Shown: positions 1,811 through 22,183, counted from the first letter of the stretch. The stretch: 56,427 nt of DNA from a candidate division WOR-3 bacterium (GCA_965649215.1 CBFGJZ010000004.1:16538-72964), one strand, 5' to 3'. Notes: a model not told the origin generated them from the sequence alone. Made by a program: numbers and translations.

Positions 1811-3070
1811 TTAATATATAATTAACTTTTTATTCACTTTACAAGTCTCGGATATTAATTTAAGAAAATAAATTCCTGTCGGAACTTTTTCATTTAAATA
1901 ATCTTTGCCATCCCAAAAAACTTCGTTAATTCCATTTAATTTTCGAATCTCTTTTCCTGTAATGTTATAGATTACGACCTTGAAACTCCCTGGTAATTTA
2001 ATTTGCGTGAATGAGCGCATGGGATTGGGCCGAATAAAAAAATCAATACTTGTTCTATCTTCCTGTTCAAGAATATTTAGTGGTGCAGTTGCATAACAAA
2101 ATCCGGCCGCACTTTCATACCACATCCGATAATTATAACCATCATAAACAACACTCGGAGCCCATGGTCCATTTGTATCAACTGCGGGATTATATGGTGG
2201 TGTAAGCGTTGAAAGTACTGGATTATTACTATATTTGTCCCAATTTATCCCATCGGTAGAAGTTGCATAGCCAATTCGAATCGTATCATATCGTCCATCT
2301 ACCAAATCTGCTTCAGACAATGCTGAATACCACATTTCATAAAGATCTCCTCTTTTTATCACCGTTGGGACACCAACCCAATAATCATCAAAGCTACCTG
2401 ATAAACCACTACCTACTACCGGATTATTTGTATATTTGGTCCAGACCAATCCATTAGCAGAGGTAGCATAACCAATTTTGATACGCCAATCAAAACCAAC
2501 TCCAGTATACCACATTTTATAAACTCCATTATCATAAATAACCGCAGGTGACTCAATCCATTTTGCTTCCCAGGATAAACTATCACCTTTAGTTAAAATG
2601 GGATTCCCTGGGTATTTAGTCCAGTTTATACCGTTATTTGACAAAGCAACACCAATTGCTCCAATGTGAGGTGGAAAAGTATCCACATCGTCACCAAAAT
2701 AATAAAGTTTATAATCATTGGCGGTACGAACTATTGCTGGAGTATCTAACCATTTAGAATCCCACTCGCCCGCACTGCCAATATTAAGCACAAATCCACC
2801 ATTTTGATATTTATGCCAATTTATACCATTCAGTGAATAGGCATATAAAATACGACTTCGATGATCAATTCCGGCTGCACAATACCACATCTTAAAAGTA
2901 TCGTTTTCTAATATTACACTAGGTTGACCAATCGCATAAAATTCAGTCAAAATATTAGTTTTTGTCATCACGGGATTATTTACATATTTAGACCAATTGG
3001 TTTGGCTATAGAGGTTCGCTATCACTGACATTAAAAGAAATATTCGCTGCCCCATGCAATAACATAGCAA
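1811..3070 (-). CDS. Five-bladed beta-propeller glycosidase-like protein (GH130/GH43-like repeats) with T9SS C-terminal sorting domain
   Basis: Five repeats of the form INW.KY..NPV..(20-30 aa)..W...P.V.....YKMWY (e.g. INWTKYPGNPILTKGDSLSWEAKWIESPAVIYDNGVYKMWYTG). CTD tail VFWDGKDYLNEKVPTGIYFLKLISE..KLIIY. Confidence 0.55.
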   Translation of the reverse strand: MLCYCMGQRIFLLMSVIANLYSQTNWSKYVNNPVMTKTNILTEFYAIGQPSVILENDTFKMWYCAAGIDHRSRILYAYSLNGINWHKYQNGGFVLNIGSAGEWDSKWLDTPAIVRTANDYKLYYFGDDVDTFPPHIGAIGVALSNNGINWTKYPGNPILTKGDSLSWEAKWIESPAVIYDNGVYKMWYTGVGFDWRIKIGYATSANGLVWTKYTNNPVVGSGLSGSFDDYWVGVPTVIKRGDLYEMWYSALSEADLVDGRYDTIRIGYATSTDGINWDKYSNNPVLSTLTPPYNPAVDTNGPWAPSVVYDGYNYRMWYESAAGFCYATAPLNILEQEDRTSIDFFIRPNPMRSFTQIKLPGSFKVVIYNITGKEIRKLNGINEVFWDGKDYLNEKVPTGIYFLKLISETCKVNKKLIIY

Positions 3071-3105
3071 ATTATTTCAACTCGTCAAGAGGATGTGTAA
3101 AATAA

Positions 3106-3133
3106 TTGACATATCAATAATAAAATATATAAT
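3106..3133 (+). promoter_or_regulatory. Sigma70-type promoter for the 3155-8941 operon
   Basis: TTGACA (3106-3111), 16-nt spacer, TATAAT (3128-3133), 21 nt upstream of the ATG at 3155. No obvious Shine-Dalgarno sequence in between. Confidence 0.5.
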
Positions 3134-3154
3134 ATAAGATTAAGCCATTAAAAT

Positions 3155-3994
3155 ATGCTAAATACTGATTTACCACTATTAATTAGTCAGTTAACAAAAA
3201 TAAAAAAGAAATTTGATGCTCTTCATCAACTCACAACTGAATATTTAAGTACTCAACCTTATGAAGCTCAAGAAAAAATTGAAGATCTAAACAAAGAATT
3301 AAATTCATCTTTGTTCATTAATCTATTAGGAGCAACAAACCTTTATCAAGAACTAAAGAGTTTTGTTAATCAAATGCAACAAAAGATAAATGCTGCAAAG
3401 GATGAATTTCACTTCAATTTAGGCCGAGAACTCAAAGCACAATTGCAAGATTTTGCTGAACTCAAAGGTCAATTACCTTTATTAAAAATCAAATATTATA
3501 CCCTTGAGTTTGATTTCAGTAATGGACAGACCACAATTTGGTGGGGACCCCAAAAAGAAATCATAAAAAAAACCGCCTTAGTAATTACAGAGATTATCCA
3601 GGCCCTTAAGTCAATCGATCAAAATCTTCACAAAAAATGGCGTAATTATCAAGACTTTTTTAGACTTCTTAAGTTGGCTTATGAACGCTATTTAAAATTA
3701 AACAATTTATCATTTGGTGAAAAGATAAATCTATTGGATATATTAACGGAATTCGTCATCTTAATTCAAAGTAAAAGTTTTAAAACAGACCCTTCAAAAA
3801 GTCATTTTCAAGAATATTCTCGAATTCAATACAGTTACGATTTGTATTGTATGAAATCTAATCCAGAACTTATGACAAACATCCAACTCTCGGTTGCAAC
3901 TTTTGCAATTACCGAAGATAAAACAAAATCATTGTGGATTCCCGATAATGAATTGGGTGATGGAACTTATTATCAAACCATTGCTTTTAAATAA
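3155..3994 (+). CDS. Hypothetical protein, first gene of the ATPase-helicase operon (coiled-coil-rich N-terminus, no domain recognised)
   Basis: 279-aa ORF with no overlapping competitor on the same strand, co-directional with and 48 bp upstream of the first ATPase. I recognise no catalytic or TerB-like motifs by eye. Confidence 0.7.
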   Translation: MLNTDLPLLISQLTKIKKKFDALHQLTTEYLSTQPYEAQEKIEDLNKELNSSLFINLLGATNLYQELKSFVNQMQQKINAAKDEFHFNLGRELKAQLQDFAELKGQLPLLKIKYYTLEFDFSNGQTTIWWGPQKEIIKKTALVITEIIQALKSIDQNLHKKWRNYQDFFRLLKLAYERYLKLNNLSFGEKINLLDILTEFVILIQSKSFKTDPSKSHFQEYSRIQYSYDLYCMKSNPELMTNIQLSVATFAITEDKTKSLWIPDNELGDGTYYQTIAFK

Positions 3995-4042
3995 GCTAAA
4001 GGTGTGAATAAAATTTAACTTTTTAATCTACTAACTTAAAAA

Positions 4043-5329
4043 ATGGAAAAAAGCGAAGCGTTATTAATTATCAATAAATTAGGCAGTAGTGGAACCCCAC
4101 CAGAAAGCGGTGTTGAAGCATTTTCAATTGGTTTAGATAAATATCTCAAAGTTATTGAACAAGAATATCTAAATGGTATTTTAAAGCAATACCATCTTTC
4201 TTCATTTAAGATTGTGGTTGGCAATTATGGAGGAGGCAAGACTCATTTTCTATATTCCATTCGCAATCTCGCTTTTAAAAACGGTTATATTGTTGTCTAT
4301 GTAGCCCTAAATCCAACTGAATGTCCCTTTGATAAATTAGAATTAGTCTATAAATCAATTGTCAATAATATTCAAATACCTTCCAGCATCCAAGCCGTCA
4401 CTACGCCACCAATTACTGGTATTGAAGCCTTTATTGAACATTGGTATAACTTAGTTAAAGAAAAAATAAATCACATTGATGCAATTTATGATTATCTTAA
4501 TGTTCTCAAAGGAGTTGAAAGCATCAGTTTTCTCAATGCAGTAAAAGCTGCATTCTATAACATTGCGAGCAACAATTATGAAGAATATCAAAACATTATT
4601 CAATATCTAAAAGGTGAAGAAATCACTAAAGAGCTCAGGGCTCGCTATCGAATATCGGAACGAATTGATAAATCAACTGCGTTTCGAATGATTCGCAGTT
4701 TAATCCAGTGGTTACATTTAATCGGTTATCATGGCATTATCTTTCTCTTTGATGAAGCCGAGCGGGGAATTTCTATGTCAAGTTCTAAAGATAAGCGTAA
4801 AGCACTTGATAATTTGCGTCAAATTGTTGATGAATGTGGTAACAGTCGTCTTCCCGGGGCAATGTTTTTCTATGCCATTCCCGATGAAAACTTATTATTA
4901 GAGGGTTCTGGTGGTGTCTATGAGGCATTGAAACAACGATTACGGAGTGTCTTTTCGCAAGTCAATCCGTTAGGTGTTAAAATTAATTTGGAAGAACTCG
5001 GCATCCCCCCTGCCGATTTCTTAAGACAACTTGGTGAAAAGTTAGTGGCTATATTTGAACTTGCCTATTCTTATAAATTTCCCAACTCTATCGTAGCAGA
5101 ATTAATACCGCATCTCGCAGAACAATCAGCGCAATCTTTTGGTTATGATATTAGTTATCGTCGACTTTTTGTAGTCAGTCTTATCGAAACCTTGCAAAAA
5201 ATTCGCAATGATCCTAATTATTTATCGACAATCGTAAGTTCAGATAAAGAAGTCTTAAAAATCATTAAAACAACAGGAAAACGACTACAAAACGAAACTC
5301 AACAAGAAGTAACCAATAAAGAATTTTAA
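4043..5329 (+). CDS. P-loop NTPase, BrxD/DUF2791-like ATPase, paralogue 1
   Basis: Walker A GNYGGGKT (aa 60-67, nt 4220-4243). Walker B IIFLFDEAE. N-terminal lead-in EALLIINKLGSSGTPPESGVEAFSIG resembles the BrxD/DUF2791 N-terminus as I remember it. Family assignment is from memory and was not searched. Confidence 0.65.
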   Translation: MEKSEALLIINKLGSSGTPPESGVEAFSIGLDKYLKVIEQEYLNGILKQYHLSSFKIVVGNYGGGKTHFLYSIRNLAFKNGYIVVYVALNPTECPFDKLELVYKSIVNNIQIPSSIQAVTTPPITGIEAFIEHWYNLVKEKINHIDAIYDYLNVLKGVESISFLNAVKAAFYNIASNNYEEYQNIIQYLKGEEITKELRARYRISERIDKSTAFRMIRSLIQWLHLIGYHGIIFLFDEAERGISMSSSKDKRKALDNLRQIVDECGNSRLPGAMFFYAIPDENLLLEGSGGVYEALKQRLRSVFSQVNPLGVKINLEELGIPPADFLRQLGEKLVAIFELAYSYKFPNSIVAELIPHLAEQSAQSFGYDISYRRLFVVSLIETLQKIRNDPNYLSTIVSSDKEVLKIIKTTGKRLQNETQQEVTNKEF

Positions 5330-5344
5330 ATACTAAAAAAAGAA

Positions 5345-6742
5345 TTGACTGAACCTAATTACCTAAAAATTTCACATCCTATTTTTGGTAGCGGTGTCTT
5401 ATTATCTACCCGCAAATCATCGATAAATCTTCAAACAGAATGTTTAGTTCGTTTTGATAGTGGTCTCCAATTATGGATTCCTCAACATCGTCTCCAAGGA
5501 TTACCTGAAGAATCTCAAGACATGGTGTTTGAAGATGGTATCATTTTAAAGGGAGAAGCATTAAAACTAAAAGCGCATCGTATGATTGAAGCCTTTCGTT
5601 TAGGGATTGTCCCGACTCAAGATGTCAGTGATTTTACTTTTGGTCGTGAACGAGAAACCAATATCATCGCGAACGCATTAACAAGCTTAAGCGAAGGCAA
5701 AGGTGGCTCAATGATTATTGAAGGTGAATATGGCACGGGTAAGTCACATCTTTTGGAGTATATTCGTGCTATAGCGCTAAAAAAGAATTTTGTTGTTAGT
5801 TCAGTTGCGTTATCAACCCAAGAAACAATCCCATCCCGTCCTAAACTGGTCTATCGAGAATTACTAACTAATTTACGATTTTACCCACAATTACCTCAAA
5901 CCAATCAAAACACACCAGAACTTGGTTTTCGAGACCTCCTGCGTGCTGCAGCAAAACAATTTCAACCACCCCATTATCTTGGCATTAAAGAGCATATCTT
6001 TTTTGCCCCGGTTCTAAAACGACTTAATAAAATCGATGACCAAAGTCCTAAAGCCGAAGTCTTTTGGCAATGGATTGAAGCAGAAAGTACCAAAGAATAT
6101 GCAGTTGGTAGTACTCATCAAGAAAAATTCGCTTCGCCTTATCGTATTTCTGGTGCATGGCAAATCCCTGCTTTATATGATTTTTCCACCGCAGTTGACT
6201 TTTATTGCTATTTAATCTCGGGTTTATCATATCTATGTCGCAATCTCCATTATCATGGATTAGTAATCTTACTGGACGAAGTTGAAACTATCTCGTTTAT
6301 CTATCAAAATCTTGCCTACGAACGAGGAATTAACTTTTTAGAAGGTCTTATCAAAATGGCACATAATGACCAAACTTTAAAACATATCAATAAAAATATG
6401 ATTCATAATCAAGTGCGACCAACCCCTTATATCTATAAAGACGCCTATGTACTCTTAGTTTTAACAACCACTCCCGAACCTGCGACTTTACGTATCAAAC
6501 ATTTATCGCCAAATATCATTAATTTACAGCCGCTTAATGAACAAAATCTCATTACCTGTTTTGAAAATTTAGTAAGATACTATCAAATTGCTTTCCCGGA
6601 TTTACATCTCTTGAATACAACAAAAGAGAAAATCCTTCATAATGCCTTGCGTTATCGAGACAATGGCATTCGTTTCTTTTTAAAATATTCAGTGGAATGC
6701 TTAGATACTATCAGAATCAATCGGAAATTAGCGGTAAATTAA
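5345..6742 (+). CDS. P-loop NTPase, BrxD/DUF2791-like ATPase, paralogue 2, with ~95-aa N-terminal beta-rich extension
   Basis: Walker A GEYGTGKS. Walker B LVILLDEVE. The core aligns with paralogue 1 (G.YG.GK(T/S)H.L..IR..A.K......VAL.......KLVY). The lead-in AHRMIEAFRLGIVPTQDVSDFTFGRERE is DUF2791-like. TTG start lies 15 nt after the upstream stop. Confidence 0.65.
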   Translation: MTEPNYLKISHPIFGSGVLLSTRKSSINLQTECLVRFDSGLQLWIPQHRLQGLPEESQDMVFEDGIILKGEALKLKAHRMIEAFRLGIVPTQDVSDFTFGRERETNIIANALTSLSEGKGGSMIIEGEYGTGKSHLLEYIRAIALKKNFVVSSVALSTQETIPSRPKLVYRELLTNLRFYPQLPQTNQNTPELGFRDLLRAAAKQFQPPHYLGIKEHIFFAPVLKRLNKIDDQSPKAEVFWQWIEAESTKEYAVGSTHQEKFASPYRISGAWQIPALYDFSTAVDFYCYLISGLSYLCRNLHYHGLVILLDEVETISFIYQNLAYERGINFLEGLIKMAHNDQTLKHINKNMIHNQVRPTPYIYKDAYVLLVLTTTPEPATLRIKHLSPNIINLQPLNEQNLITCFENLVRYYQIAFPDLHLLNTTKEKILHNALRYRDNGIRFFLKYSVECLDTIRINRKLAVN

Positions 6743-6841
6743 CACAATCTAAATTGTCATTTCAATACCAAGAAAGCGCTTATCTCGCCTATATATTTGA
6801 TAATAAGACAAGAGCAATTAATTTCTTAAAGAAACTTTAAT

Positions 6842-8941
6842 ATGAAGAACCCAATTAAAACTCTACTTCCGCGCACTTATTTTCCCTTTTTTAGTCGATT
6901 TGGCAAATTAACTCAAGTCCAAGAACAAACAATTCCTGCAATTATCGCTGACCAAGATGTGCTTGTCGTATCACCATCGGCATCAGGCAAGACTGAAGCA
7001 GTAATCGCACCCCTGATTGAAAAAACCTTATCATTTGGTGAAAATCGATTTGTTCTTATCTATATCTCCCCAACTCGAGCATTGGTTAATGATTTATATC
7101 GTAGACTCATTGACCCTGTTTCGTATTTAGGATTAAAGATTGATAGAAAAACAGGTGATTATCCAACTATTAATGAAAAAGACCTACCTTTTATTTTATT
7201 AACTACGCCCGAGTCATTTGATTCGCTACTCTGCCGTCATCCTAAAATATTTGCTAATCTACAGGGCGTTATTCTTGATGAACTACATTTACTTAATAAT
7301 ACACCACGCGGTGATCAACTACGAATTTTATTGGTTCGGTTAGAAAGATTAATCAAAAGCGAGCCGCTTTTGTCATTACGAACTAAAGCAAATTATCCTT
7401 TTCTGAGATATGCAGCACTTTCCGCAACTGTTGATGACCTCACCATGGCAAATCAATATTTTCCCAATCCCACTAACATTCAAGTTATTTGTATAAAACA
7501 ATCCCGTGAAATTGACTATCAACTTATTTCTGCTCAAGATAATTTTATTCCCAAACTAATCAATCACTTTATTGAAAAAGACTTTAGAAAAATTCTTTGG
7601 TTTTTTAATGCTCGCAGTCTTGCCGAAGAATTTTTACAAATCTTAAAGCAAAAAAAGTGTCCTTATCCGGTCTGGGTTCATCATTCATCGCTATCCCGAA
7701 AAGAACGCGAACAAGTCGAGCATCTGATGATGAAAGAACCGCGCGGTATTCTCTGTGCCACTTCTACTTTGGAACTCGGTATTGATATTGGCGATGTTGA
7801 TTGTGTCGTTCAATATCGTCCCCCTTTCAATATTAGTTCGCTTCTCCAAAGAATTGGTCGTGGTAATCGTCGTAACCAAAATTATCTTTATGCAATTGGC
7901 ATCTATTTCTCATTTCTTGATAAAATATTATTTGAACTCTTTTTTGAATGTGCTAGAAGAGGAAATTTATATGAGCATTCTTATCAGCCTTGCTTATCCG
8001 TACTACCGCAACAAATTTTCTCCTATGCCTACCAAAGAAGACGCATTGGTCTAACTTACGAAGCATTTGAAAACATAACTCAACACTATCTAGATGACCA
8101 ACCCCATCTTAAAAACCAAATCTTTAATTATCTTATCAATCAAGATTATCTTACACCAATAAAATCAGGTATTTATAGTCTCACTCATAAACTTGAAAAA
8201 AAATTAGAATATGGTAAAATTCATTCTAATATCCAAGAAAAAAGTTTTGGCGCCTATTCCGTTTATAATGCCGAATCAGGTAGTTTTTTAGGTCAAGTCT
8301 TTTACTTAAGCGAACGATTTATACTTGGTGGTAAATCCTATGAATTATTGCGGGTAGAAGAAAAAGAGAAACGAGTTTTTGTACGATATTTAAAAGAAGT
8401 GAGTGGCACTACCAAAATATTTGAAGGCACGGGTACCATTGGCTATCATTATAAATTAATCCCCTTACTGATAAAAAAATTATTCTATAAGCATAACCTA
8501 ACGATAGAAGGGTTTCCTTATTTTATTGAAAACAAATATGTCCATCTTATCCATCTCTTAGGTGGGCTTTACGCATACATTTTGAAACAGGCATTACAAA
8601 AAGAAAACTATCAAATTACCGATGTATCTGGCTTAATGTTTATCTTTCCCCAGCCTAAATCAGGATTAATCAGTTTCCCCATACCCACTGAGACAACGAT
8701 ACGTGATGTTATAAAAGAAAATCTTATAAGATTAGAAGATAATCTCGGTTCAGGTGCTTTTTTCAAATATCTACCGCAAGAACTACAAGTCGAAGACCAC
8801 TATCGAGCACTGGATATGGCAGGTTTACTCGAATTTATCAAATCTCAGAAGTTGAGCAAAATCGCCCCGCAAGATTGGTTAAATTTTATAGACGACCAGC
8901 AAGATGATAACAAAACAATACAAGATATAGAAAAAGAATAA
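6842..8941 (+). CDS. Superfamily-2 DExH helicase, Lhr/BrxHI-like
   Basis: Q motif LTQVQEQ, I SPSASGKTEA, Ia SPTRALVND, Ib TTPES, II DELH, III SAT, V TSTLELGIDIG, VI QRIGRGNRR. The C-terminal half contains ..NAESGSFLGQVFYLSERFILGGKSYELLRVEEKEKRVFV, which resembles the Lhr-core C-terminal domain pattern. No Cys4 zinc cluster. Confidence 0.8.
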   Translation: MKNPIKTLLPRTYFPFFSRFGKLTQVQEQTIPAIIADQDVLVVSPSASGKTEAVIAPLIEKTLSFGENRFVLIYISPTRALVNDLYRRLIDPVSYLGLKIDRKTGDYPTINEKDLPFILLTTPESFDSLLCRHPKIFANLQGVILDELHLLNNTPRGDQLRILLVRLERLIKSEPLLSLRTKANYPFLRYAALSATVDDLTMANQYFPNPTNIQVICIKQSREIDYQLISAQDNFIPKLINHFIEKDFRKILWFFNARSLAEEFLQILKQKKCPYPVWVHHSSLSRKEREQVEHLMMKEPRGILCATSTLELGIDIGDVDCVVQYRPPFNISSLLQRIGRGNRRNQNYLYAIGIYFSFLDKILFELFFECARRGNLYEHSYQPCLSVLPQQIFSYAYQRRRIGLTYEAFENITQHYLDDQPHLKNQIFNYLINQDYLTPIKSGIYSLTHKLEKKLEYGKIHSNIQEKSFGAYSVYNAESGSFLGQVFYLSERFILGGKSYELLRVEEKEKRVFVRYLKEVSGTTKIFEGTGTIGYHYKLIPLLIKKLFYKHNLTIEGFPYFIENKYVHLIHLLGGLYAYILKQALQKENYQITDVSGLMFIFPQPKSGLISFPIPTETTIRDVIKENLIRLEDNLGSGAFFKYLPQELQVEDHYRALDMAGLLEFIKSQKLSKIAPQDWLNFIDDQQDDNKTIQDIEKE

Positions 8942-9036
8942 AACTTATAAACATCCCTGGCAATAAATATAGTCTCCTCGTACCCCAACAATTAATTTCA
9001 ATAAGATTGCATCTGTTTCATCTCTAATGTTATCAT

Positions 9037-9057
9037 TCTGAATTTATTTCAGATTTT
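9037..9057 (+). terminator. Weak AT-rich hairpin plus T-run downstream of the helicase gene
   Basis: TCTGAA (9037-9042), 5-nt loop, TTCAGA (9048-9053), then TTTT. The 6-bp stem is marginal. Confidence 0.25.
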
Positions 9058-9474
9058 CATTTCTCTTAATTAGTGCTTAGATTTTATTTAGAAATTAGAT
9101 TTTAGAAGTTAATAACTAAAGGGTCTCCCTGATAGCGTAGACAATCTATAAAACTATCCTATCGGTAATCCCGTGAGTTATCTGGTAGGATATCTAGGGG
9201 GTTACCCATAGGATATCCCACCCGTCGATCAGTTTTACTGTCTTGTCGGTAATCTTATCTGGTATCGTCTACCTTATCCTTTACACTAACAAAGAGATAG
9301 TCGATAATACTATCGAGTGTATTGCCGATAATACTAGAAACGGGTCTGGGTTATTTACGGTGCGAATCAATAACAAAGTTAAATAAATTAAATTTGTCCT
9401 CAACTTTCTTGATAATAAGAAAAGGTTATAGTTTTGTTTATTCTATTGAATATTCTAGATATACAATGTCAATC

Positions 9475-9503
9475 TTGACCCAAATTGTTTTTATACCTAT
9501 AAT
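9475..9503 (+). promoter_or_regulatory. Sigma70-type promoter for the aminopeptidase gene
   Basis: TTGACC (9475-9480), 17-nt spacer, TATAAT (9498-9503). It is followed by a ~70-nt leader with a strong SD GAGGAGG just before the ATG at 9581. Confidence 0.5.
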
Positions 9504-9580
9504 TAAATGCAGTTTATGTTACAAATAGAACTAAAAATCCCTAAATTTTAAGATGGAATTATCAAAATGAGGAGGAATAA

Positions 9581-10684
9581 ATGAAAGATATCAGAATCGA
9601 GCGTTGGGCTGATGTTTTAGTGAATTATTCATTGGGAGTTAAAAAAGGTGATTTAATGCAAATCAAATCAACTTATTTAGCTGACCCATTAATTAGAGAA
9701 GTTTATCGATTAGCATTGCAAAAAGGAGCTAATCCTTATGTTACATATTTTGGTGAAGGATTAACTGAAATCTTTTTTGAAGAAGCAAGTAAAGAACAGT
9801 TAGAATACATCTCACCGATCGAACGATTTGAAATTGAAAAGATTGATAAATATTTGTATATCATTGCTGAATTCAACCGAAAATCCTTATCTAACTTTGA
9901 TCCTAACCGATTGAGTTTACGGCGAAAAGCTACAGGTAAATTATTAGAACGACGCTTGGCTCGCGCCGCAAAAGGTGAAATGCGTTGGTCATTAACTGCT
10001 TATCCTGATAATGCCCAAGCCCAAGACGCTGAAATGTCACTAAACGAATTTGCTGAATTCATATTTGCTGCTGGCTATTTAAATGATAAAGACCCTATTA
10101 AAAAATGGCAGACCATTGCCAAAGAACAACAACGCTTAGTAAAAGTTTTAAGTAAAATTAAATATTTACATATCCAAACTAAAGGGACTGACTTGAAACT
10201 TTCGGTACAAGGTCGTAAATGGATTAGCTGCGAAGGTCATGAAAACTTTCCTGACGGCGAAGTCTTTACCACACCAATTGAAGACTCAGTTGAAGGAATG
10301 ATAACTTATACTTTCCCTTGCGTATATGCCGGACGGGAAGTAAATGACGTTGTGTTGAAGTTCAAAAATGGTGAAGTTGTTGAAGCTAAAGCATCAAAAG
10401 GTGAAGACTATCTGAAATCAATGATTATGATGGATGCTGGTGCTAAACGGATTGGTGAATTTGCTTTTGGTACTAATTATGGTATAACTAAACATATTAA
10501 AAATATTCTATTTGATGAAAAAATCGGCGGCACAATTCATTTAGCACTTGGTTCTTGTTACCCTGAAACTGGTGGCAAAAACAAATCAAGTCTCCATTGG
10601 GATATGATCTGCGATTTACGCAAAGATGCCGAAGTTCGTGGCGATGGTAAAATAATTTATCAAAATGGTAAATTTACGATCTAA
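9581..10684 (+). CDS. Aminopeptidase, M29 family (AmpS/PepS/aminopeptidase T-like)
   Basis: The N-terminus MKDIRIERWADVLVNYSLGVKKGDLMQIKS..ADPLIREVYRLALQKGANPYV is typical of M29. Size 367 aa; strong SD. Confidence 0.85.
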   Translation: MKDIRIERWADVLVNYSLGVKKGDLMQIKSTYLADPLIREVYRLALQKGANPYVTYFGEGLTEIFFEEASKEQLEYISPIERFEIEKIDKYLYIIAEFNRKSLSNFDPNRLSLRRKATGKLLERRLARAAKGEMRWSLTAYPDNAQAQDAEMSLNEFAEFIFAAGYLNDKDPIKKWQTIAKEQQRLVKVLSKIKYLHIQTKGTDLKLSVQGRKWISCEGHENFPDGEVFTTPIEDSVEGMITYTFPCVYAGREVNDVVLKFKNGEVVEAKASKGEDYLKSMIMMDAGAKRIGEFAFGTNYGITKHIKNILFDEKIGGTIHLALGSCYPETGGKNKSSLHWDMICDLRKDAEVRGDGKIIYQNGKFTI

Positions 10685-10736
10685 AGGAATCGTTTTTTAT
10701 TTAAATCAAGTCTAATAAGAATGAGAAAGGATAGAT

Positions 10737-11216
10737 ATGCCGATATTTTATTCACCAATTGAAGTCATTGAAATGGCTATAAAAACTGAAAAAACGGGTA
10801 ATGCGTTCTATACAAATGCTGCTACAAAAACGAAATCTAAAATTTTAAGTGAACTTTTTACTTATCTTGCTAAAGAAGAAACTAAACATGAAAAAACATA
10901 TAGTAAATTATATAAAACTATCAAGGATGATCCCCGAGCCCTACCTTTTGATCTTGATGAAATTCGTTTGTATTTACAAGCAATCACAGATTCCAAATTT
11001 TTTGAAGGACCTGACAAAGCATTAAGTTACATCACAAAAGCAAAAACACCCAAATCCTTACTTGACTTTGCGCTTCAATTTGAAAAAGAAACCATGCTAT
11101 TTTACTTAGAGATTCTTAATATGGTTAAAAGTGAACACAAACATTTAGTTGAAAAGATAATCAGCCAAGAAAAACAGCATATAAAAAAATTATCCGCAAT
11201 GAAGGAAAGTATCTAA
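10737..11216 (+). CDS. Rubrerythrin/ferritin-like diiron domain protein
   Basis: Four-helix-bundle pattern with paired E..H sites (EETKHE, QEKQHI) and MAIKTEKTGNAFY / FEKETMLFY helices. Confidence 0.7.
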   Translation: MPIFYSPIEVIEMAIKTEKTGNAFYTNAATKTKSKILSELFTYLAKEETKHEKTYSKLYKTIKDDPRALPFDLDEIRLYLQAITDSKFFEGPDKALSYITKAKTPKSLLDFALQFEKETMLFYLEILNMVKSEHKHLVEKIISQEKQHIKKLSAMKESI

Positions 11217-11220
11217 AACT

Positions 11221-11736
11221 ATGTCAACTTACGATCCAATTAAAGCATTAGAAATCGCAATCAGTACTGAAAAAAATGGTCTTAAGACCTATCTTGATTT
11301 TAGTTATAAAACGCAAGACATTTCTGGTAAAAATATGTTTATTCGATTAGCGGCTGATGAATTCGAACATATGACCATTTTGGAGAAACAACGAGAAAGT
11401 ATTCAAGAAAAAGAATGCTGGCTCACAGTTAAAATTGAACCATCTGAAATTGAAAAATTGATTCCTGAAATTAAAGCAAAATCAGCAAAAATCAAGGGTC
11501 GGGAAGGCCTCGACCAAATGGTCGCATTACGAACCGCTTTAGAAATGGAAGATCAAGCTATAAAATTTTACAAAGAACAAGCCCAACTTAGTACTGACCC
11601 CAAAGCTAAAGAAATGTATCAACGTTTAGTTGCGATGGAACAAGCCCATTATGAACTTATTCAAGCTGAAATCGATTATATTGAAAAAACTGGTTTTTGG
11701 TTTAATATTCAAGAATTTTCTTTAGAAATTGAATAA
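11221..11736 (+). CDS. Rubrerythrin/ferritin-like diiron domain protein (second copy)
   Basis: IAISTEKNGLKTY, ADEFEHM, ALEMEDQAIKFY and MEQAHYE motifs. Starts 4 nt after the previous stop. Confidence 0.7.
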   Translation: MSTYDPIKALEIAISTEKNGLKTYLDFSYKTQDISGKNMFIRLAADEFEHMTILEKQRESIQEKECWLTVKIEPSEIEKLIPEIKAKSAKIKGREGLDQMVALRTALEMEDQAIKFYKEQAQLSTDPKAKEMYQRLVAMEQAHYELIQAEIDYIEKTGFWFNIQEFSLEIE

Positions 11737-11767
11737 GTTTAATTATTACCAAATTTAAACTAAAAAT

Positions 11768-12331
11768 ATGTATTCAGAAAAAGTAATGGATCATTTTCGT
11801 AATCCCCGCAATGTCGGAGAAATTGCTGATGCCGACGGCATCGGAGAAGTAGGTAATCCTGTTTGTGGTGATATGATGACATTTTACATTAAGGTTAAAG
11901 ATAATCGATTGGTTGATGTTAAATTTAAAACTTTTGGTTGCGGTGCTGCAATTGCCGTTTCCAGTATGGTCTCAGAAATGGCAATTGGCAAAACCATTGA
12001 AGAAGCAATGAAAATAACCAATGCCGATGTCGCCAAAGAACTTGGTGGTTTACCACCCAATAAATTACATTGCTCAAACTTAGGTGCCGATGCACTCCAT
12101 AAAGCAATTGAAAACTATCTCAACAAAAAATCAAAAATTACAACTAAAACAGAAAAAGTGGAAGCACCCCAAGAAAAATTGGAATGCTATTGCCCATATT
12201 GCCATCAACCAGTTGAACCGCAAGCACCATTTTGTCGTCCCTGTAACAAACAGATAAAATATTGTTCTGCGTGTCAAAAACCTATTAGCAAAGATAATTC
12301 TCTCTGCCCGCATTGCGGAGAAAAACAATAG
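11768..12331 (+). CDS. iscU: Fe-S cluster scaffold IscU/NifU N-domain fused to a C-terminal double zinc-ribbon
   Basis: YSEKVMDHFRNPRNVG..GNPVCGDMM..FKTFGCGAAIA..LPPNKLHCSNLGADAL carries the three scaffold cysteines. The C-terminus carries CYCPYC..FCRPC..YCSAC..LCPHC. Confidence 0.85.
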   Translation: MYSEKVMDHFRNPRNVGEIADADGIGEVGNPVCGDMMTFYIKVKDNRLVDVKFKTFGCGAAIAVSSMVSEMAIGKTIEEAMKITNADVAKELGGLPPNKLHCSNLGADALHKAIENYLNKKSKITTKTEKVEAPQEKLECYCPYCHQPVEPQAPFCRPCNKQIKYCSACQKPISKDNSLCPHCGEKQ

Positions 12332-12345
12332 TTTAGGGAGGTAAA

Positions 12346-12636
12346 ATGGCAATCGTTGATATTAGCATTGTTCCGATTGGTACAAAAAATACGAGTGTTA
12401 GTGAATTTGTTCGCAAAAGCATTAAACTTATTAAAAAAAGCGGTCTTAAATATCAGGTCGGTGCCATGGGAACTACTATTGAAGGAGATCTTTCGGATAT
12501 CTTTGAACTTATCTTGCAAATTCACAAAGCACAAATAAAGATGGGTGCCAAACGTCTCCTCACAACTGTAAAAATTGATGATCGACGAGATAAAAAACAA
12601 AGTATTGAAGATAAAATAAAAGCTGCCACTAAATAA
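12346..12636 (+). CDS. MTH1187/YkoF-family (UPF0045) thiamine-binding-like protein
   Basis: MAIVDISIVPIGT..TSVSEFV....I..SGLKYQVGAMGTTIEGD pattern; ~96 aa. Confidence 0.75.
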   Translation: MAIVDISIVPIGTKNTSVSEFVRKSIKLIKKSGLKYQVGAMGTTIEGDLSDIFELILQIHKAQIKMGAKRLLTTVKIDDRRDKKQSIEDKIKAATK

Positions 12637-12651
12637 AAAATTTTACTTCAG

Positions 12652-12680
12652 TTGACGATAAATTGCATTTAAGTTAAAAT
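12652..12680 (+). promoter_or_regulatory. Sigma70-type promoter abutting the start codon at 12687
   Basis: TTGACG (12652-12657), 17-nt spacer, TAAAAT (12675-12680), only 6 nt before the ATG. Confidence 0.45.
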
Positions 12681-12686
12681 AATGAG

Positions 12687-14558
12687 ATGGGTATTTTTCA
12701 AAAATTACTTTTTTGTATCTTCTTAATCTTTAGCCTAAGCCAAACCCAAAATTTAAAAATTTACCAAATTGATGTAAATACTGGTGATGCGGCGTTAATT
12801 GTATCTCCGACCAATAAATATATTCTGATTGATGCTGGTCATATTGTCGGCAGTTATGGGGATACAGTTTTAGCATTATTACAAAATTTAGGAATTACTC
12901 ACTTAGATCATATAATTACTTCTCATCATCATGAAGATCATATTGGAGGAATTCCTCGTGTCATCTATGGTCTGAGCGGCAATGGTCAAAATGACTCAAT
13001 TTTAGGTTACTGTTATGATCGAGGTGATACTTACACAACAACAACTTTCCTTAATTATCGTAATGCGGCGGGAACGAAACGTCGCACTATTAATCCTGGT
13101 GATACGTTAAATTTAGGTGGTGGTGCTTTTATGTTCTGTGTCGTTCGCAATGGTAAATATATTAACGGAGATAGTGTTATCCCCTCTAGCGGTGAAAATT
13201 ATCGGTCGGTTGGTTTAGTCCTTCAATATGGTCGTTTTCGCTTTTTTACGGGTGGTGATCTAATTGGTTATAATGTCACAGGGGAACGCGATGTTGAAAC
13301 AAAATTAGCACCGCTTGTCAAAAAAGTCGATTTAATAAAAGTCAGTCATCACGGCAGTAGAAATAGTTCCAATCCAACTTTTTTAGATTCGCTCAGACCT
13401 AAAGCAGCTTTAATCTCGCAAGGTATAATTCCCACTAATAATGGACATCCCCATCAAGAAGCATTAGATCGCTTAGCGGCACGTAATATCTATATTTATC
13501 AGCTTAATGATAATCCAAGCGGCGGAATTATTCCTAACGGGCAAGGACAAATTCTTAACCGTACCGCAGTAGTCAGCGTGAATCATGCATCATTTTTAGT
13601 CAATAATGATGAATACATATTAGATGGAGTTATTCGGGATGGTGCTTGTTTAGAAATCATCTCGCCACGCGATACGGTTACTGAAGGTTCAAATGTTAAT
13701 CCAAGAGCAATAATAAAAAATTTTGGTAATGAACAAGAAGCATTTAAAGTGCGTTTTAAAATCGGAAATGTTTATCAACGCACTCAAACAATATATGGTT
13801 TACAACCAAATGATACTATGACCGTATGTTTTGATACTACATGGTACGCCATAAGAGGCAATTATCAGATTAGCTGCTCTACAGAAGTATTGGGAGATAC
13901 TGACCATCTTAATGATAAACAAACAGGAAGTGTTACAGTCGCTTTTTATGACAATACCATCGAACAAATATTAAATCCGGCTAACAACGCTATCTTTTAT
14001 TACAATCAAAACATTTACCCTTCTGCCATTATCAGAGATAATTCAGCTTATTGCTATCCAACTTCAATTAAAATCTTCTGTCAAATTAAAAATATCAACT
14101 CAATAGTCTATTCGGATTCTATAGACCATCTCTCTCGACCAGGGAGTATAGACACTGTTTATTTCCAACCATTTTATGTTCCCAATACTTATGAAGGTAC
14201 CCATATCTGTTCAGTTTGGGTAAGAAGGGAAAACGATCTAATACCAACAAACAATTTTCTAACCACTCAATTTTCAATTTTAGATCCCGCCGGCATCACT
14301 AACCAAGAGAAACCTTCTTATGATAAATTTAATGATCGGTTTAAAGAAGTTGTCTTTAAAATTTATAATGCAAATGGACAGTTATTAAAATCTCTAACTG
14401 TGACTAATCCAAATAAATCAATTAACTATAAAGCATTATATTTATTAACTAACTTAAAGCCCGGGATTTACTTTGTACAGTCAATTGCAATATCAATCAT
14501 TGACAATAAAAAAACAGTTTCAAGGCGAAAATTAGTTGTATTATCAACCAATAGATAA
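12687..14558 (+). CDS. Secreted ComEC-type metallo-beta-lactamase-fold hydrolase with CARDB-like domains and T9SS C-terminal sorting domain
   Basis: Signal peptide. HxHxDH motif SHHHEDHIGG and the later VSHHGS motif, as in the ComEC/Rec2 MBL domain. CARDB-like LEIISPRDTVTEGSNVNPRAIIKNFGN. CTD tail ..LKPGIYFVQSI..RKLVVL. Confidence 0.7.
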   Translation: MGIFQKLLFCIFLIFSLSQTQNLKIYQIDVNTGDAALIVSPTNKYILIDAGHIVGSYGDTVLALLQNLGITHLDHIITSHHHEDHIGGIPRVIYGLSGNGQNDSILGYCYDRGDTYTTTTFLNYRNAAGTKRRTINPGDTLNLGGGAFMFCVVRNGKYINGDSVIPSSGENYRSVGLVLQYGRFRFFTGGDLIGYNVTGERDVETKLAPLVKKVDLIKVSHHGSRNSSNPTFLDSLRPKAALISQGIIPTNNGHPHQEALDRLAARNIYIYQLNDNPSGGIIPNGQGQILNRTAVVSVNHASFLVNNDEYILDGVIRDGACLEIISPRDTVTEGSNVNPRAIIKNFGNEQEAFKVRFKIGNVYQRTQTIYGLQPNDTMTVCFDTTWYAIRGNYQISCSTEVLGDTDHLNDKQTGSVTVAFYDNTIEQILNPANNAIFYYNQNIYPSAIIRDNSAYCYPTSIKIFCQIKNINSIVYSDSIDHLSRPGSIDTVYFQPFYVPNTYEGTHICSVWVRRENDLIPTNNFLTTQFSILDPAGITNQEKPSYDKFNDRFKEVVFKIYNANGQLLKSLTVTNPNKSINYKALYLLTNLKPGIYFVQSIAISIIDNKKTVSRRKLVVLSTNR

Positions 14559-16999
14559 TGAAAATAAGACTTTGGTTAATTTTACTATTAATATTTTCAA
14601 TAACTGTTTTTGCTCAAGACCTGCTTAAGATTTATTGCATTGATGTTGATCAGGGCGATGCGACGCTTATTGTTTCACCAACTAATCAATACATACTGAT
14701 TGATGCAGGTGATATTTCAGGCAATTATGGCGATAGTGTCTATAGATTTATTAAAAACTTAGGCATTACCCACCTTAAACATACTATTGCAACTCATTAT
14801 CACGCTGATCATATCGGTGGATTTCCAGTTGTTATCTGTTCTTTAAGTGGTGGCGCAAACCGTAACGATTCAGTATTAGGATGGTGTTATGACCGCGGTG
14901 ATTCTAATCCAACTCTTACTCAACCATATAATTCTTATGTTACTGTATGCACCCTCAATAATAAAAGAAGAATCATCGGTTTAGGTGAAACTTTAGATTT
15001 AGGCGGTGGCGCAATGATGATCTGCGTTGCTCGAAATGGTCAAGTCGTTAATGGAACAGGCGTTACCCCTAACGAAGAGAATGATCGCTGTCTCGCTTTT
15101 ATATTAAAATATGGACATTTCAAATTTTTTATCGGTGGTGATTTAAGTGGTTCAAATCAAGCCGGCTATCGGGATGTTGAAAGTTGGGTTGCACCAGTAG
15201 TGGGAAAGATAGACGTTTTACGAGTAAACCATCATGGTAGTAAATATAGCTCTAACCGAACATTTTTAGATTCGTTAAAACCGCGAGTCGCAATTATTTC
15301 CGTTGGGAATAATCCATATGGCTATCCCTTTCAAGAAGTTATTGACAGTTTAGTGAGTCGTAATTCATTTATCTACCAACTGAATGAAAATCCCAGTGGC
15401 GGAGGTAGTATACCAACAAATTGTGGTCGCATCTTAAATACAAATGCCGAAATCATCGTAAATAATATTGACTTTATTGTAAATGGTGATACCTATCCAA
15501 TAAGAGGTGTCAGACGAGATGCTTCCGTGTTAGAAATAATTTCTCCTAAGGACACTATTACTGAAGGTATTGAAATAAGGCCACGGGTAAAAATTAAAAA
15601 TTGTGGTAATATTACTGATTATTTTATGGTAAGATTCCAAATTGGCTCTGTCTATAATAAAACTAAAACAATTTCTGCTTTGGCATCACAAGATACCATT
15701 ACGATAAGTTTTGACACAACTTGGATAGCTCAATCAGGCAATTACCAAATTATATGTTCAACTGAAGTTAGTCGTGATAGCAATCCGACAAATAACAAAC
15801 AAACTACAAATCTTACCGTCTTACCTGCTATAAGTGGTTGGCATAATATGAAAACAATTCCTAAACCGATTCAGGATGGTGGTGCATTAACAAGTTCTTC
15901 AAATCAAATTTATGCTTTTACAGGTAATAGCCGAGCTTTTCTTGTATATGAGCCCACCAATAACTATTGGCAAGTAAAAGAATCAATTCCATTTGGTTAT
16001 AATTTAGGAAAACTAAAAACAAAAGTTGTTAAAAGGGGCGGAGCTTTAACATCCGGAAAAGACAATTTAGGATTTGAGGTGATTTATGGCCTTAAAGGAA
16101 ATAATACTTACGAAGTTTGGAAATATATAATCCATCAAAATAATTGGCAGCAAATCAATCAATTTTATAAACCATATAAAGGTGGTTCAGCAATTGTCTA
16201 TTACCAGAAAGGTTCTCAGAAATTGCTCTTTAGCTTGTGGGGAAATACCAAAGAAAATGATTTTCAAGCTTATAATATTACAACAGGCCAATGGTTAATA
16301 AAAGATACAGCACCAGGTAAGTTCAAGGATGGCAGTGCCATGACGGTAGTACGAGATTCTATCTTCGTCTTAAAAGGTGGTGCTAAAATTAATGAATTCT
16401 ATTGTTACGATATAATCCAAGATACTTGGTTATCGCTAGCACCAATGCCTCAAATCCACCCTCATATAGAACGAAACAAAAAAGTTAAATCTGGTGGCGC
16501 ATTAACTTATGACGCGATTACTAATAAAATTTATGCCTTTAAGGGCGGTGGTACTCAAGAATTTTGGAGTTATGATATTTATACCAATATATGGACTTTC
16601 CAAGAAACAATTCCTACACTTCCGCCGGGAGATAAAAGAAGTGTTGTTAAAGCTGGTGGTAGTTTAACTGCCTTAAATGGAAGAATATTTGCCTTTAAAG
16701 GCAATAAGCGAAATGAATTCTGGCAATATATTCCAACTTACCAAAAAATCGCTAATATTTATAATAATTCAAATAAAATTCCTACCCCGCAATCAAACAA
16801 GTTGAATAATAATTCCATCCTAACTCTTAAAGAAGGTGCTATCTATAATATAAACGGACAAAAAATCATTCAGATTCCAGAATCTGATTTTATTAATTTA
16901 GAATATAAAAATCTAAAGCCAGGAATATATTTTATTGTATCTAATCCTACCAACAACAATTCCAAAGGTTCTATACGCAAAATAATCATACCACGATAA
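14558..16999 (+). CDS. Secreted ComEC-type MBL-fold hydrolase paralogue with CARDB-like domain, six Kelch-like repeats and T9SS C-terminal sorting domain
   Basis: The ATG overlaps the upstream TAA. THYHADHIGG and VNHHGS motifs. The N-terminal ~400 aa are clearly alignable with the upstream gene. Repeats of K.VK.GGAL......IYAFKG....EFW.Y. CTD tail LKPGIYFIVSN..IRKIIIPR. Confidence 0.7.
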   Translation: MKIRLWLILLLIFSITVFAQDLLKIYCIDVDQGDATLIVSPTNQYILIDAGDISGNYGDSVYRFIKNLGITHLKHTIATHYHADHIGGFPVVICSLSGGANRNDSVLGWCYDRGDSNPTLTQPYNSYVTVCTLNNKRRIIGLGETLDLGGGAMMICVARNGQVVNGTGVTPNEENDRCLAFILKYGHFKFFIGGDLSGSNQAGYRDVESWVAPVVGKIDVLRVNHHGSKYSSNRTFLDSLKPRVAIISVGNNPYGYPFQEVIDSLVSRNSFIYQLNENPSGGGSIPTNCGRILNTNAEIIVNNIDFIVNGDTYPIRGVRRDASVLEIISPKDTITEGIEIRPRVKIKNCGNITDYFMVRFQIGSVYNKTKTISALASQDTITISFDTTWIAQSGNYQIICSTEVSRDSNPTNNKQTTNLTVLPAISGWHNMKTIPKPIQDGGALTSSSNQIYAFTGNSRAFLVYEPTNNYWQVKESIPFGYNLGKLKTKVVKRGGALTSGKDNLGFEVIYGLKGNNTYEVWKYIIHQNNWQQINQFYKPYKGGSAIVYYQKGSQKLLFSLWGNTKENDFQAYNITTGQWLIKDTAPGKFKDGSAMTVVRDSIFVLKGGAKINEFYCYDIIQDTWLSLAPMPQIHPHIERNKKVKSGGALTYDAITNKIYAFKGGGTQEFWSYDIYTNIWTFQETIPTLPPGDKRSVVKAGGSLTALNGRIFAFKGNKRNEFWQYIPTYQKIANIYNNSNKIPTPQSNKLNNNSILTLKEGAIYNINGQKIIQIPESDFINLEYKNLKPGIYFIVSNPTNNNSKGSIRKIIIPR

Positions 17000-17013
17000 T
17001 TAATTTATTCATA

Positions 17014-17042
17014 TTGACAATCTTGGGGGCGATAACTAATCT
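17014..17042 (+). promoter_or_regulatory. Sigma70-type promoter abutting the start codon at 17048
   Basis: TTGACA (17014-17019), 17-nt spacer, TAATCT (17037-17042), 5 nt before the ATG. Confidence 0.45.
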
Positions 17043-17047
17043 ATGCT

Positions 17048-19246: not shown

Positions 19247-19265
19247 ATTTCACTAAAATAAGTCT

Positions 19266-20507: not shown

Positions 20508-20992
20508 TAATTAAATTTCAATTTATTTATCTCAAAATCTTTTATTTGTTTGAGACGTTTTAGATGTCGCTTGCCTAAAAACTTTTCTTGCAAAAAAACT
20601 TTAACAATTTCTTTAGCTTTATTATAAGAAGTGAAATCAGCTGCTAATACTAATACATTTGCATTATTATGAGCACGGGCTCGAACTGCTAATTCTTTAT
20701 TGAGGCATAATGCAGCACGAATTCCTTGAACTTTATTTGCGGCAATCGACATGCCAAGTCCTGATCCACAAATTAAAATACCATAATCTATTTTTGGTGA
20801 AATAACTCTTTTACCCTCTTTAATATGCTGACACAATTGAAACGCTACTAATGGATAATCGGCTCGTTCTTCACAATAAACACCAAAATCATTAACGCGA
20901 TATCCTTCGCTAACGAGAAAAAATTTAAGTTTTTCTTTTAATTTAAAGCCGCGATGATCCGAACCAATGCCTAAATATGGTACTTTGGGCAT
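20504..20992 (-). CDS. rpiB: Ribose-5-phosphate isomerase B (RpiB/LacAB family)
   Basis: LGIGSDHRGFKLKEKL.., ILICGSGLGMSIAANKVQGIRAAL, NNANVLVLAADF. Confidence 0.9.
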   Translation of the reverse strand: MPKVPYLGIGSDHRGFKLKEKLKFFLVSEGYRVNDFGVYCEERADYPLVAFQLCQHIKEGKRVISPKIDYGILICGSGLGMSIAANKVQGIRAALCLNKELAVRARAHNNANVLVLAADFTSYNKAKEIVKVFLQEKFLGKRHLKRLKQIKDFEINKLKFNY

Positions 20993-21011
20993 TTATTTGA
21001 GATATTTTGTT

Positions 21012-21935: not shown

Positions 21936-22011
21936 GAGGGCCTCCTCTGTTTAATCTGTTATAATTAATAATTTTCATTTCTTGATTATACAACACACAC
22001 TTAATAAAAAA

Positions 22012-22085
22012 TGGCGGCGAAGGGAATTGAACCCCTGACCAAGAGATTATGATTCTCCTGCTCTGCCAGACTGAGCTACACCGCC
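22012..22085 (-). tRNA. tRNA with CAU anticodon (elongator tRNA-Met type; a lysidine-modified tRNA-Ile2 cannot be excluded); CCA not encoded
   Basis: The reverse complement folds by hand into a cloverleaf: GGCGGTG/TA/GCTC-AGTCTGGCA-GAGC/A/GGAGA-ATCATAA-TCTCT/TGGTC/AGGGG-TTCAATT-CCCTT/CGCCGCC/A. The paired 1:72 position argues against an initiator tRNA. Confidence 0.9.
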
Positions 22086-22093
22086 ATAGTTCT

Positions 22094-22178: not shown

Positions 22179-22183
22179 ATATT

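Follow-up and report, generated by a model that had tools for sequence, protein, structure and literature searches.

The operon analyzed here, which lies in a 56,427-nucleotide stretch of the genome of a candidate division WOR-3 bacterium (GCA_965649215.1, CBFGJZ010000004.1:16538-72964; hereafter the window), has its closest described counterparts in two defense modules, Shango and the BrxD–BrxHI dyad of bacteriophage exclusion (BREX) type 2. We know of no established mechanism for Shango, nor of established roles for BrxD and BrxHI in BREX type 2, and the dyad was reportedly found by Goldfarb in 2015 in BREX type 6 too. Shango combines a TerB-like protein, an ATPase, and a DEAD/DEAH helicase, and its protection against phages has been validated (10.1101/2022.05.11.491447; 10.1101/2022.11.11.516204 / PMC10250203). 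A 2026 survey classes BrxD as an ORC/Cdc6-type AAA+ ATPase, describes its tight linkage with BrxHI in a dyad, and proposes that it loads or activates this helicase (PMC12839542). Overall, we find that the operon is a distinct and widespread relative of both modules that fits neither.

Four genes make up this conserved and self-contained operon, all on the + strand: g1 (3155–3994; 279 aa), g2 (4043–5329; 428 aa), g3 (5345–6742; 465 aa, TTG start), and g4 (6842–8941; 699 aa), separated by intergenic gaps of 48, 15, and 99 bp. A non-coding spacer of 639 bp (8942–9580) then leads up to an M29 peptidase gene starting at 9581. When reading frames were re-derived, the four open reading frames (ORFs), their coordinates, and their gaps came out exactly as in a first-pass annotation, made by a model from the DNA alone, which had proposed the block as a candidate undescribed defense system; the Walker and helicase motifs it listed could likewise all be read directly from the translations. 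The near-consensus promoter it had pointed to is a sigma-70-type TTGACA-N16-TATAAT site (3106–3133, +) with a 12/12 match, the only one of its kind in the scanned region, where promoter-like matches of ≥9/12 show no overall enrichment (38 found, 33.4 expected). Both hexamers and their distance to the ATG are invariant in 7 relatives, in which the remaining intergenic DNA is ~65% identical. This site is one half of a divergent pair, the other (3061–3088, −) belonging to a gene for a glycosidase-like protein of the type IX secretion system (T9SS), whose TTGACG −35 box (CGTCAAG on the + strand) is kept in most relatives.

The g1–g4 block lies far beyond chance, as the order g1, g2-type ATPase, g3-type ATPase, helicase recurs in ~100 independent loci and is fixed among them. 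These loci were sampled from WOR-3 relatives, 12 GTDB species, Dehalococcoidia, Asgard archaea, divergent clusters, and 80 metagenomic loci; the 12 species, obtained with narrow WOR-3 patterns, are a lower bound and not an estimate of prevalence, and the 80 metagenomic loci were retained from at least 498 matches to a search with a g2 alignment. In every cassette locus examined, g1 is the first gene. Adjacent genes often overlap by a few bases at their start and stop codons, which suggests translational coupling.

We first compare the ATPases with their counterparts in the described modules. Both g2 and g3 exceed the threshold of PF10923 (BrxD/ORC-Cdc6-like AAA+) and contain Walker A and B motifs, which supports their original assignment to the BrxD/DUF2791 family. 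The product of g2, the most conserved part of the cassette, matches PF10923 over its full length (5.3e-46, 157.8 bits; gathering threshold 22.2 bits), while the more divergent g3 product matches it at 1.5e-27 (97 bits) and also matches AAA_16. The Walker A and Walker B motifs are GNYGGGKT (nt 4220–4243) and IIFLFDEAE (nt 4736–4762) in g2, and GEYGTGKS (nt 5723–5746) and LVILLDEVE (nt 6260–6286) in g3, all on the + strand, and the patterns GxxGxGK[T/S] and hhhhDE are kept in both ATPase lineages in all copies. Among PADLOC models, BrxD was matched by g2 at 4.5e-37 and by g3 at 1.4e-21, and SngB more weakly by both (8e-22 and 4e-18, respectively). The NCBIfam BREX_BrxD equivalog NF033438, with its cutoff of 350 bits, was reached by neither (127.7 bits for g2, 76.1 for g3).

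The two ATPases share 27% identity across their common core (E 1e-11), and the paralogy suspected at first pass is thus borne out. Across all cassettes, distant plasmid copies included, the ATPase encoded first is of the g2 type by score, and the one after it is of the g3 type. Because this order holds throughout, the duplication appears, from sequence comparison, to predate the spread of the cassette and to be ancient. Single-copy SngB and BrxD proteins score nearer to g2 than to g3, and the g3 lineage has an insert of its own after Walker B, NDPxLK..IHNQVRPTPYIY. Among WOR-3 loci, g2 is 55–80% identical; a search of PDB sequences returned no solved relatives of g2, and homologues of g3 form 383 clusters. 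In two metagenomic loci (L077 and L093), no g1 was detected upstream of the g2–g3 pair and no helicase follows it; these may represent a minimal pair or decayed cassettes.

The fourth gene encodes a Lhr/Ski2-like DExH helicase of superfamily 2 (SF2), in agreement with its initial description as Lhr/BrxHI-like. Pfam identifies DEAD and Helicase_C domains, and motif I SPSASGKT (nt 6971–6994), DELH (nt 7277–7288), and QRIGRGNRR (nt 7847–7873) are all found on the + strand. In PADLOC, g4 scores equally with SngC (1.8e-65, aa 20–530) and BrxHI (1.3e-64, aa 19–518), and its post-core region (aa 351–530) is common to SngC and BrxHI. Relatives among solved sequences include Brr2, SLH1, ASCC3, Lhr (5v9x, 7lhl; E ~1e-19 to 1e-20), and Hel308, and the best NCBIfam hits are of the Lhr type (PRK13767 / PRK09751 / TIGR04121), at 157–177 bits against cutoffs of 849–1496; these alignments cover no more than the SF2 core and a portion of the post-core region. 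Lhr helicases are 3′–5′ translocases with a role in repair that are induced by damage and can unwind RNA:DNA duplexes (PMC5758891, PMC9841417, PMC7437997), and bacterial Lhr has an AlkZ-like C-terminal domain (PMC10953399). Unlike bacterial Lhr, a protein of ~1500 aa with which it has the SF2 DExH core in common, g4 is much shorter, lacks the Lhr C-terminal domain, and is always operonic with g1 and two ATPases. The C-terminal half of g4 has no Pfam match, a profile of its C-terminus found nothing credible among PDB sequences, and its last ~170 aa have no family assignment. The helicases of two lineages (L022, Asgard, and L111) are short, at ~525–530 aa, and do not include this ~170-aa region.

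The first gene is where the cassette departs furthest from the described modules. It had been called an orphan, which it is not: a word-seeded search returned 38 relatives only, nearly all from candidate division WOR-3, whereas an exhaustive profile search yielded 658 clusters at 50% identity (E ≤ 1e-3), 181 of them at E ≤ 1e-30, so that the family comprises at least 658 such clusters across several bacterial phyla and Asgard archaea. Its named members come from Dehalococcoidia, Stahlbacteria, WOR-3, and Asgard archaea (Promethearchaeota, Helarchaeota), and all are annotated as hypothetical. No match to g1 was found in Pfam, PADLOC-DB v2, or NCBIfam. The structural check proposed at first pass gave a confident AlphaFold2 (AF2) model (predicted local distance difference test, pLDDT, 89.8; predicted template modeling score, pTM, 0.80), with long N-terminal helices followed by an alpha/beta body, for which Foldseek returned no significant match in the PDB (best E 0.27) and none in BFVD. 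Across 141 diverse members, conservation falls mainly on Gly, Pro, and aromatic residues, and also on Q205, R223, and D229. The g1 family is a sizeable uncharacterized one, whose protein of ~280 aa is confidently modeled and unmatched in the PDB and in a viral structure library.

Several candidate identities for g1 were considered and rejected. A nuclease or other enzyme was set aside since no acidic cluster occurs among the conserved residues and no fold match was found in the PDB or BFVD. ORC and Cdt1 entries recurring among the insignificant PDB hits (E 0.3–3) were not trusted, and a weak profile match to 2qp2 (E 0.007 over 40 aa) was judged spurious. A relationship to TerB or SngA was rejected on library scans, hidden Markov model (HMM) searches, and hhalign: no TerB or SngA match to g1 appeared at E ≤ 1 in Pfam, PADLOC, or NCBIfam, a broad g1 HMM did not match SngA of three canonical Shango loci (L026, L027, L028) at E ≤ 10, and hhalign of the g1 family against SngA/TerB gave a probability of 0.3%. 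Two homologues are extended at the N-terminus, namely an Asgard protein of 366 aa (L022, 1935–3035) with a weak Rho_N match, and a protein of 469 aa (L111, 580–1989) in which the g1 profile matches two stretches.

A further difference is found at the start of g3, where ~75 residues precede the BrxD-type core. The first-pass annotation had missed that g3 begins with a Tudor-like small beta-barrel domain (5363–5500, +; aa 7–52) of the class by which UvrD/PcrA, Mfd, and CarD dock onto RNA polymerase. Copies from WOR-3, Dehalococcoidia, and Asgard archaea all keep its motif, HPvFGeGxV..RWxGxExxVxFxsGLxLW, which is absent from SngB, BrxD, and the more distant class II copies of the cassette described below. 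When a profile of the segment was compared with PDB sequences, the top four entries were UvrD C-terminal domains (7egt, E 0.003; 7egs; 6yi2; 4c2t), with UvrD C-terminal chains spanning E 0.003–0.16 and other Tudor domains next. Pfam applied to 22 orthologous segments detected PF21196 (PcrA_UvrD_tudor) in 2/22 (best 3.3e-4) and CarD_TRCF_RID (PF02559) in 2/22 (0.041), and the segment of the window itself had no Pfam match at E ≤ 10. Its AF2 model is all-beta (pLDDT 87.5) and forms a small five-stranded barrel of the Tudor/SH3-like type. The best Foldseek matches are the RNA polymerase interaction domain (RID) of Mfd, the PcrA/UvrD Tudor domain, and CarD, with probabilities of 0.98–1.0 and TM scores of 0.55–0.65 (0.63/0.64 against 5dma, a PcrA/UvrD Tudor domain), at E-values of only 0.06–0.3, as expected for a domain of ~50 residues. 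Complexes with RNA polymerase are among the matched PDB entries (7egs, 4xax, 6x26, 6m6a), and the domain resemblance suggests a putative binding of RNA polymerase by g3.

The barrel, and apparently also the signature HxxFGxGxV...VxF, are common to g3, the C-terminal domain of PcrA/UvrD (5dma, 7egs, 6yi2, 9dqs), the Mfd RID (6x26, 6m6a, 2eyq), and the N-terminal domain of CarD (4l5g, 4xax). In contrast to that class, the Tudor domain of g3 sits at the N-terminus of an AAA+ ATPase rather than on a helicase or translocase, and Asgard copies of g3 retain it although archaeal RNA polymerase differs. Defense helicases of BREX type 3 and its relatives that parallel RapA, a protein associated with RNA polymerase, have been described as bearing Tudor domains at the N-terminus (PMC12839542). 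In BrxHII of BREX type 3 and in BREX-related Swi2/Snf2 proteins, a single N-terminal Tudor domain is likewise found on an NTPase of a multi-gene ATPase–helicase conflict system (PMC12839542), but there the carrier is the Swi2/Snf2 helicase, whereas in the present cassette the BrxD-type ATPase bears the domain and the helicase is of the Ski2/Lhr-like kind.

Set side by side with Shango, the cassette has a similar layout, consisting of a small or medium-sized accessory protein, a PF10923-type ATPase, and a Lhr/Ski2-like DEAD/DEAH helicase, the last of which is recognized by the SngC model, and neither includes an obvious nuclease or toxin effector. With BREX type 2 (Pgl), it has in common the linkage of a PF10923 ATPase to a Ski2/Lhr-like helicase, g2 being nearest to the BrxD model and g4 matching BrxHI. 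The matches of g2 and g3 to both SngB and BrxD, and of g4 to both SngC and BrxHI, would be accounted for if the cassette were a divergent Shango or a detached fragment of BREX type 2 or 6 that existing models already cover. We regard this as very improbable. Instead of a TerB protein, the first gene encodes a member of an unrelated family with no fold match; instead of one SngB, every member of the family has two ATPases of ancient divergence, both scoring higher with BrxD; and SngB lacks the Tudor-like N-terminus of the second ATPase. Compared with BREX, the ATPase is duplicated, g1 is added, the cassette is autonomous, and the BrxD equivalog cutoff is not reached. Neither PglX, PglZ, BrxC, and PglW nor TerB was detected among the large ORFs of the 56-kb window (Pfam, PADLOC), as had been noted of PglX, PglZ, and TerB for the ATPase–helicase core, and PglX, PglZ, and BrxC are also absent from the flanks of WOR-3 relatives. 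On a plasmid of Aulosira, moreover, the cassette adjoins a separate cluster of PglZ, a single ATPase of its own, and a helicase, without being part of it. The earlier view that no named system fits also holds in that no PADLOC-DB v2, NCBIfam, or Pfam model covers g1, and no description of the twin-ATPase cassette or of the g1 family was found in the searchable literature, the coverage of which did not extend to Anantharaman et al. 2012.

Beyond WOR-3, the cassette occurs in many bacteria and some archaea, and spans phyla and domains (WOR-3, Dehalococcoidia, Stahlbacteria, Asgard archaea, and cyanobacterial and Desulfomonile plasmids). The plasmid copies were found by tblastn of g2 against plasmids and belong to a more distant subclass, class II, carried by the conjugative plasmid3 of Aulosira laxa NIES-50 and by pDESTI.01 of Desulfomonile tiedjei DSM 6799. 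The cassette spans 18893–24287 on the former and 10215–15641 on the latter. The first genes of both plasmid copies encode 279 aa and match the broad g1 HMM at ~1e-15.

These copies raise the question of whether the cassette serves the replication, partition, or establishment of mobile elements, with its ORC/Cdc6-like ATPases acting as initiator or helicase loader. ATPases of the BrxD family are of the ORC/Cdc6 type (PMC12839542), one copy is on a conjugative plasmid, the cassette of the 27-kb pDESTI.01 comes after a ParA gene and a helix-turn-helix (HTH) gene, and an HTH_17 gene lies directly upstream of a further class II copy (L116). Most copies by far are, however, chromosomal and lack integrase, Rep, or transfer genes in their vicinity; a class II g1 was found on only 2/72,556 plasmids; and no copies came from viral contigs or phage records. 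A role as the replication module of pDESTI.01 was considered separately and is unlikely, as this plasmid encodes a candidate Rep of its own, an HTH protein of 402 aa, as well as a DNA polymerase. Overall, we consider a mobile-element function quite improbable.

Instead, interference with foreign DNA (phage or plasmid) appears to be the most likely role of the cassette, a reading we favor with restrained confidence. It rests on homology to two validated or accepted defense modules and on the contexts of the class II and Dehalococcoidia copies. Immediately downstream of the Dehalococcoidia copy (L021) lies a type I restriction–modification (R-M) system with an OLD-family nuclease, in the order HsdM, HsdS, nuclease, HsdR. 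The Aulosira copy (L024) comes directly after the PglZ, ATPase, and helicase cluster, and the Desulfomonile plasmid copy (L025) is near AbiEi/Eii. Two further class II copies are in defense islands, one (L116) with Dcm, Vsr, DUF87, and HTH_17 upstream, and the other (L117) between an RNase H-SF1 helicase and SNF2, DUF4391, and GmrSD.

In such a system, g2 and g3 could form a hetero-oligomeric ORC/Cdc6-like switch or loader, with g1 as adaptor or sensor in the place held by the TerB protein SngA in Shango. The Tudor domain would tether the complex to RNA polymerase or another partner, and an ATP-driven assembly might then load or activate the 3′–5′ helicase on a target nucleic acid. As neither a nuclease nor a toxin domain can be recognized, the effector step would, speculatively, consist of helicase-driven disruption or the recruitment of host nucleases.

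A number of observations weigh against a defense function. No nuclease, toxin, or other effector domain is evident in the four proteins, and both the formation of a four-protein complex and its binding to RNA polymerase are themselves putative. No relatives of the cassette were found in IMG/VR or phage records, which were searched for phage-borne copies. Among WOR-3 relatives whose g2 is 76–80% identical, the flanks are shared, with T9SS glycosidase-like and DUF559 genes on one side and the M29 peptidase (79–86% identical there) and rubrerythrins on the other; the GC content of the cassette (0.30–0.37) is the same as that of its flanks, and the operon promoter is conserved, all of which is the behavior of a resident housekeeping locus. 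In a survey of the 135 nearest flanking ORFs at 52 non-redundant loci, given here as raw counts, the commonest neighbors were glycosyltransferases, sugar epimerases/dehydratases, and C25 peptidases. PADLOC matches among flanking ORFs were few (MADS components, PDC-M19, a type III methyltransferase, TIR, Cas3-HD), and some are generic: a chromosomal SMC in the window (SMC_N and hinge; 37765–40890, +) also matches mad3 (5e-47), as well as LmuB, AriA, and GajA, so that PADLOC matches to ABC/SMC-type ATPases are not specific to defense. Finally, of 50 metagenomic loci with ≥2.5 kb past g3, the helicase is adjacent in 42, and the remaining 8 have housekeeping genes after g3 and no adjacent helicase, i.e., a three-gene form exists.

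The exchange of the helicase for another effector at these loci was considered and rejected, as the genes downstream encode SAICAR synthetase, reverse gyrase, ThrRS, BioY, and an OmpA-like protein. Two of the three-gene cassettes (L090, 12595–16984; L095, 7721–12139) are followed by SAICAR synthetase and reverse gyrase, so that at least some carriers are (hyper)thermophiles.

Within the lineage of the window, the cassette thus largely behaves as the conserved syntenic locus that would speak against a defense role: it is inherited vertically, in synteny, and among housekeeping genes, with few defense neighbors. The defense reading proposed by the first-pass annotation is hence supported only in part, since settings in defense islands and on plasmids do occur, but in other lineages. 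Its description of the immediate neighbors as unrelated was right, with an opposite-strand gene for a T9SS-tailed glycosidase-like protein on one side and the M29 peptidase downstream, according to Pfam annotations of orthologues 66–86% identical. The rest of the window consists of housekeeping genes.

This vertical, syntenic inheritance, together with host-like GC content and housekeeping-like conservation, would also suit a role in genome maintenance, in which ATPases tethered to RNA polymerase would bring a Lhr-like 3′–5′ helicase to stalled transcription, R-loops, or damaged forks. Mfd or UvrD, with their part in transcription-coupled repair, would be analogues, as would Lhr in the repair of crosslinks or uracil. 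The nearest relatives of the Tudor domain (Mfd, UvrD/PcrA, CarD) all serve to dock a repair or transcription factor onto RNA polymerase, Lhr is damage-inducible and repair-active (PMC5758891, PMC9841417, PMC7437997), and the helicase-less three-gene forms are also found among housekeeping genes. Beside the helicase, the closest relatives have an AlkZ-like gene that parallels the C-terminal domain of Lhr (PMC10953399), but it is on the opposite strand, restricted to one sub-lineage, and absent from the window. A patchy distribution across phyla and domains, with plasmid copies and R-M, Abi, GmrSD, or BREX-like settings, is furthermore atypical for core repair; the nearest characterized relatives of the ATPases and of the helicase are defense components; and class II copies lack the Tudor domain. 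Maintenance is a serious alternative, though one to which we lend less credence than to interference with foreign DNA.

A bolder proposal, which we find unlikely, is that the cassette represents a new and ancient class of transcription-coupled nucleic-acid surveillance in bacteria and Asgard archaea, in which a heteromeric pair of ORC/Cdc6-like ATPases, docked on RNA polymerase by the UvrD/Mfd-type Tudor domain, a g1 sensor, and a helicase would abort the transcription or replication of invaders. Here, g1, with a fold not seen before, would sense an invader-specific state, upon which the ATPase pair would load the Lhr-like helicase, and both Shango and the BrxD–BrxHI dyad would be simplified relatives with a single ATPase.

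Irrespective of its function, the cassette is a natural variant of the Shango/BrxD–BrxHI core and a common one: its clusters at 50% identity number in the hundreds, and at least 498 loci are known from metagenomes. It is also informative, as TerB and the BREX core are missing from it while its second ATPase is obligatory and comes with a Tudor domain of the class that docks onto RNA polymerase. If the Tudor domain does bind RNA polymerase, this would be the first concrete handle on the site of action of this family of machines, and would make the substrate of the helicase loader a directly testable question. The split context, housekeeping-like in WOR-3 and defense-island or plasmid cargo elsewhere, also makes the cassette a test case for guilt by association with defense islands.

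Additional features were noted around the cassette. The position after the helicase is variable: in relatives, it holds the opposite-strand AlkZ-like (PF06224) gene, in one case with a PQQ beta-propeller gene as well (L001, 16402–17598; L003, 16298–18757; L009, ~15640–20020). With its place beside a Lhr-like helicase, this gene brings to mind the AlkZ-like domain that is fused to the C-terminus of Lhr in bacteria (PMC10953399). In the window, neither an AlkZ remnant nor an Rfam family was found in the 639-bp spacer, which includes a likely promoter of the M29 gene (9475–9503; 11/12 consensus match). Between 9041 and 9390, the spacer also contains direct repeats, namely ACTrTCyTrTCGGTAATC twice (84 nt apart), TTATCTGGTA twice, and ATwGyCGATAATACTA twice, and an inverted repeat of 18 nt (9155–9172 / 9198–9215; 89% complementary). 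Another pair of contigs (L114, 1961–9221, and L115) have an identical g1 protein and differ by an insertion upstream of the cassette; encoded in this insertion are an ATPase_2/AAA_22 (STAND-like) protein of 2016 aa and a protein of 406 aa.

Elsewhere in the window, a 223-aa DUF559/MTES_1575 protein (21–692, +) has a C-terminal Vsr-like restriction-endonuclease fold and a partial PADLOC match to PDC-S37 (2e-8); its N-terminal ~115 aa have no family assignment, and its upstream place is conserved in three relatives (L001, L003, L010). It is followed by genes for two tandem paralogous glycosidase-like proteins (682–1806 and 1811–3070, −) with T9SS C-terminal tails, directly upstream of the cassette and GH32/43/130-like according to faint Pfam matches in orthologues. 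Two adjacent large proteins of the metallo-beta-lactamase (MBL) fold (12687–16999, +), one with Kelch and CARDB repeats, have weak PADLOC matches to the MBL domains of LmuA and Avs1a, and are probably secreted T9SS-type proteins and not defense genes. The only Rfam match of the window is a tRNA gene (22012–22085, −; 63.9 bits).

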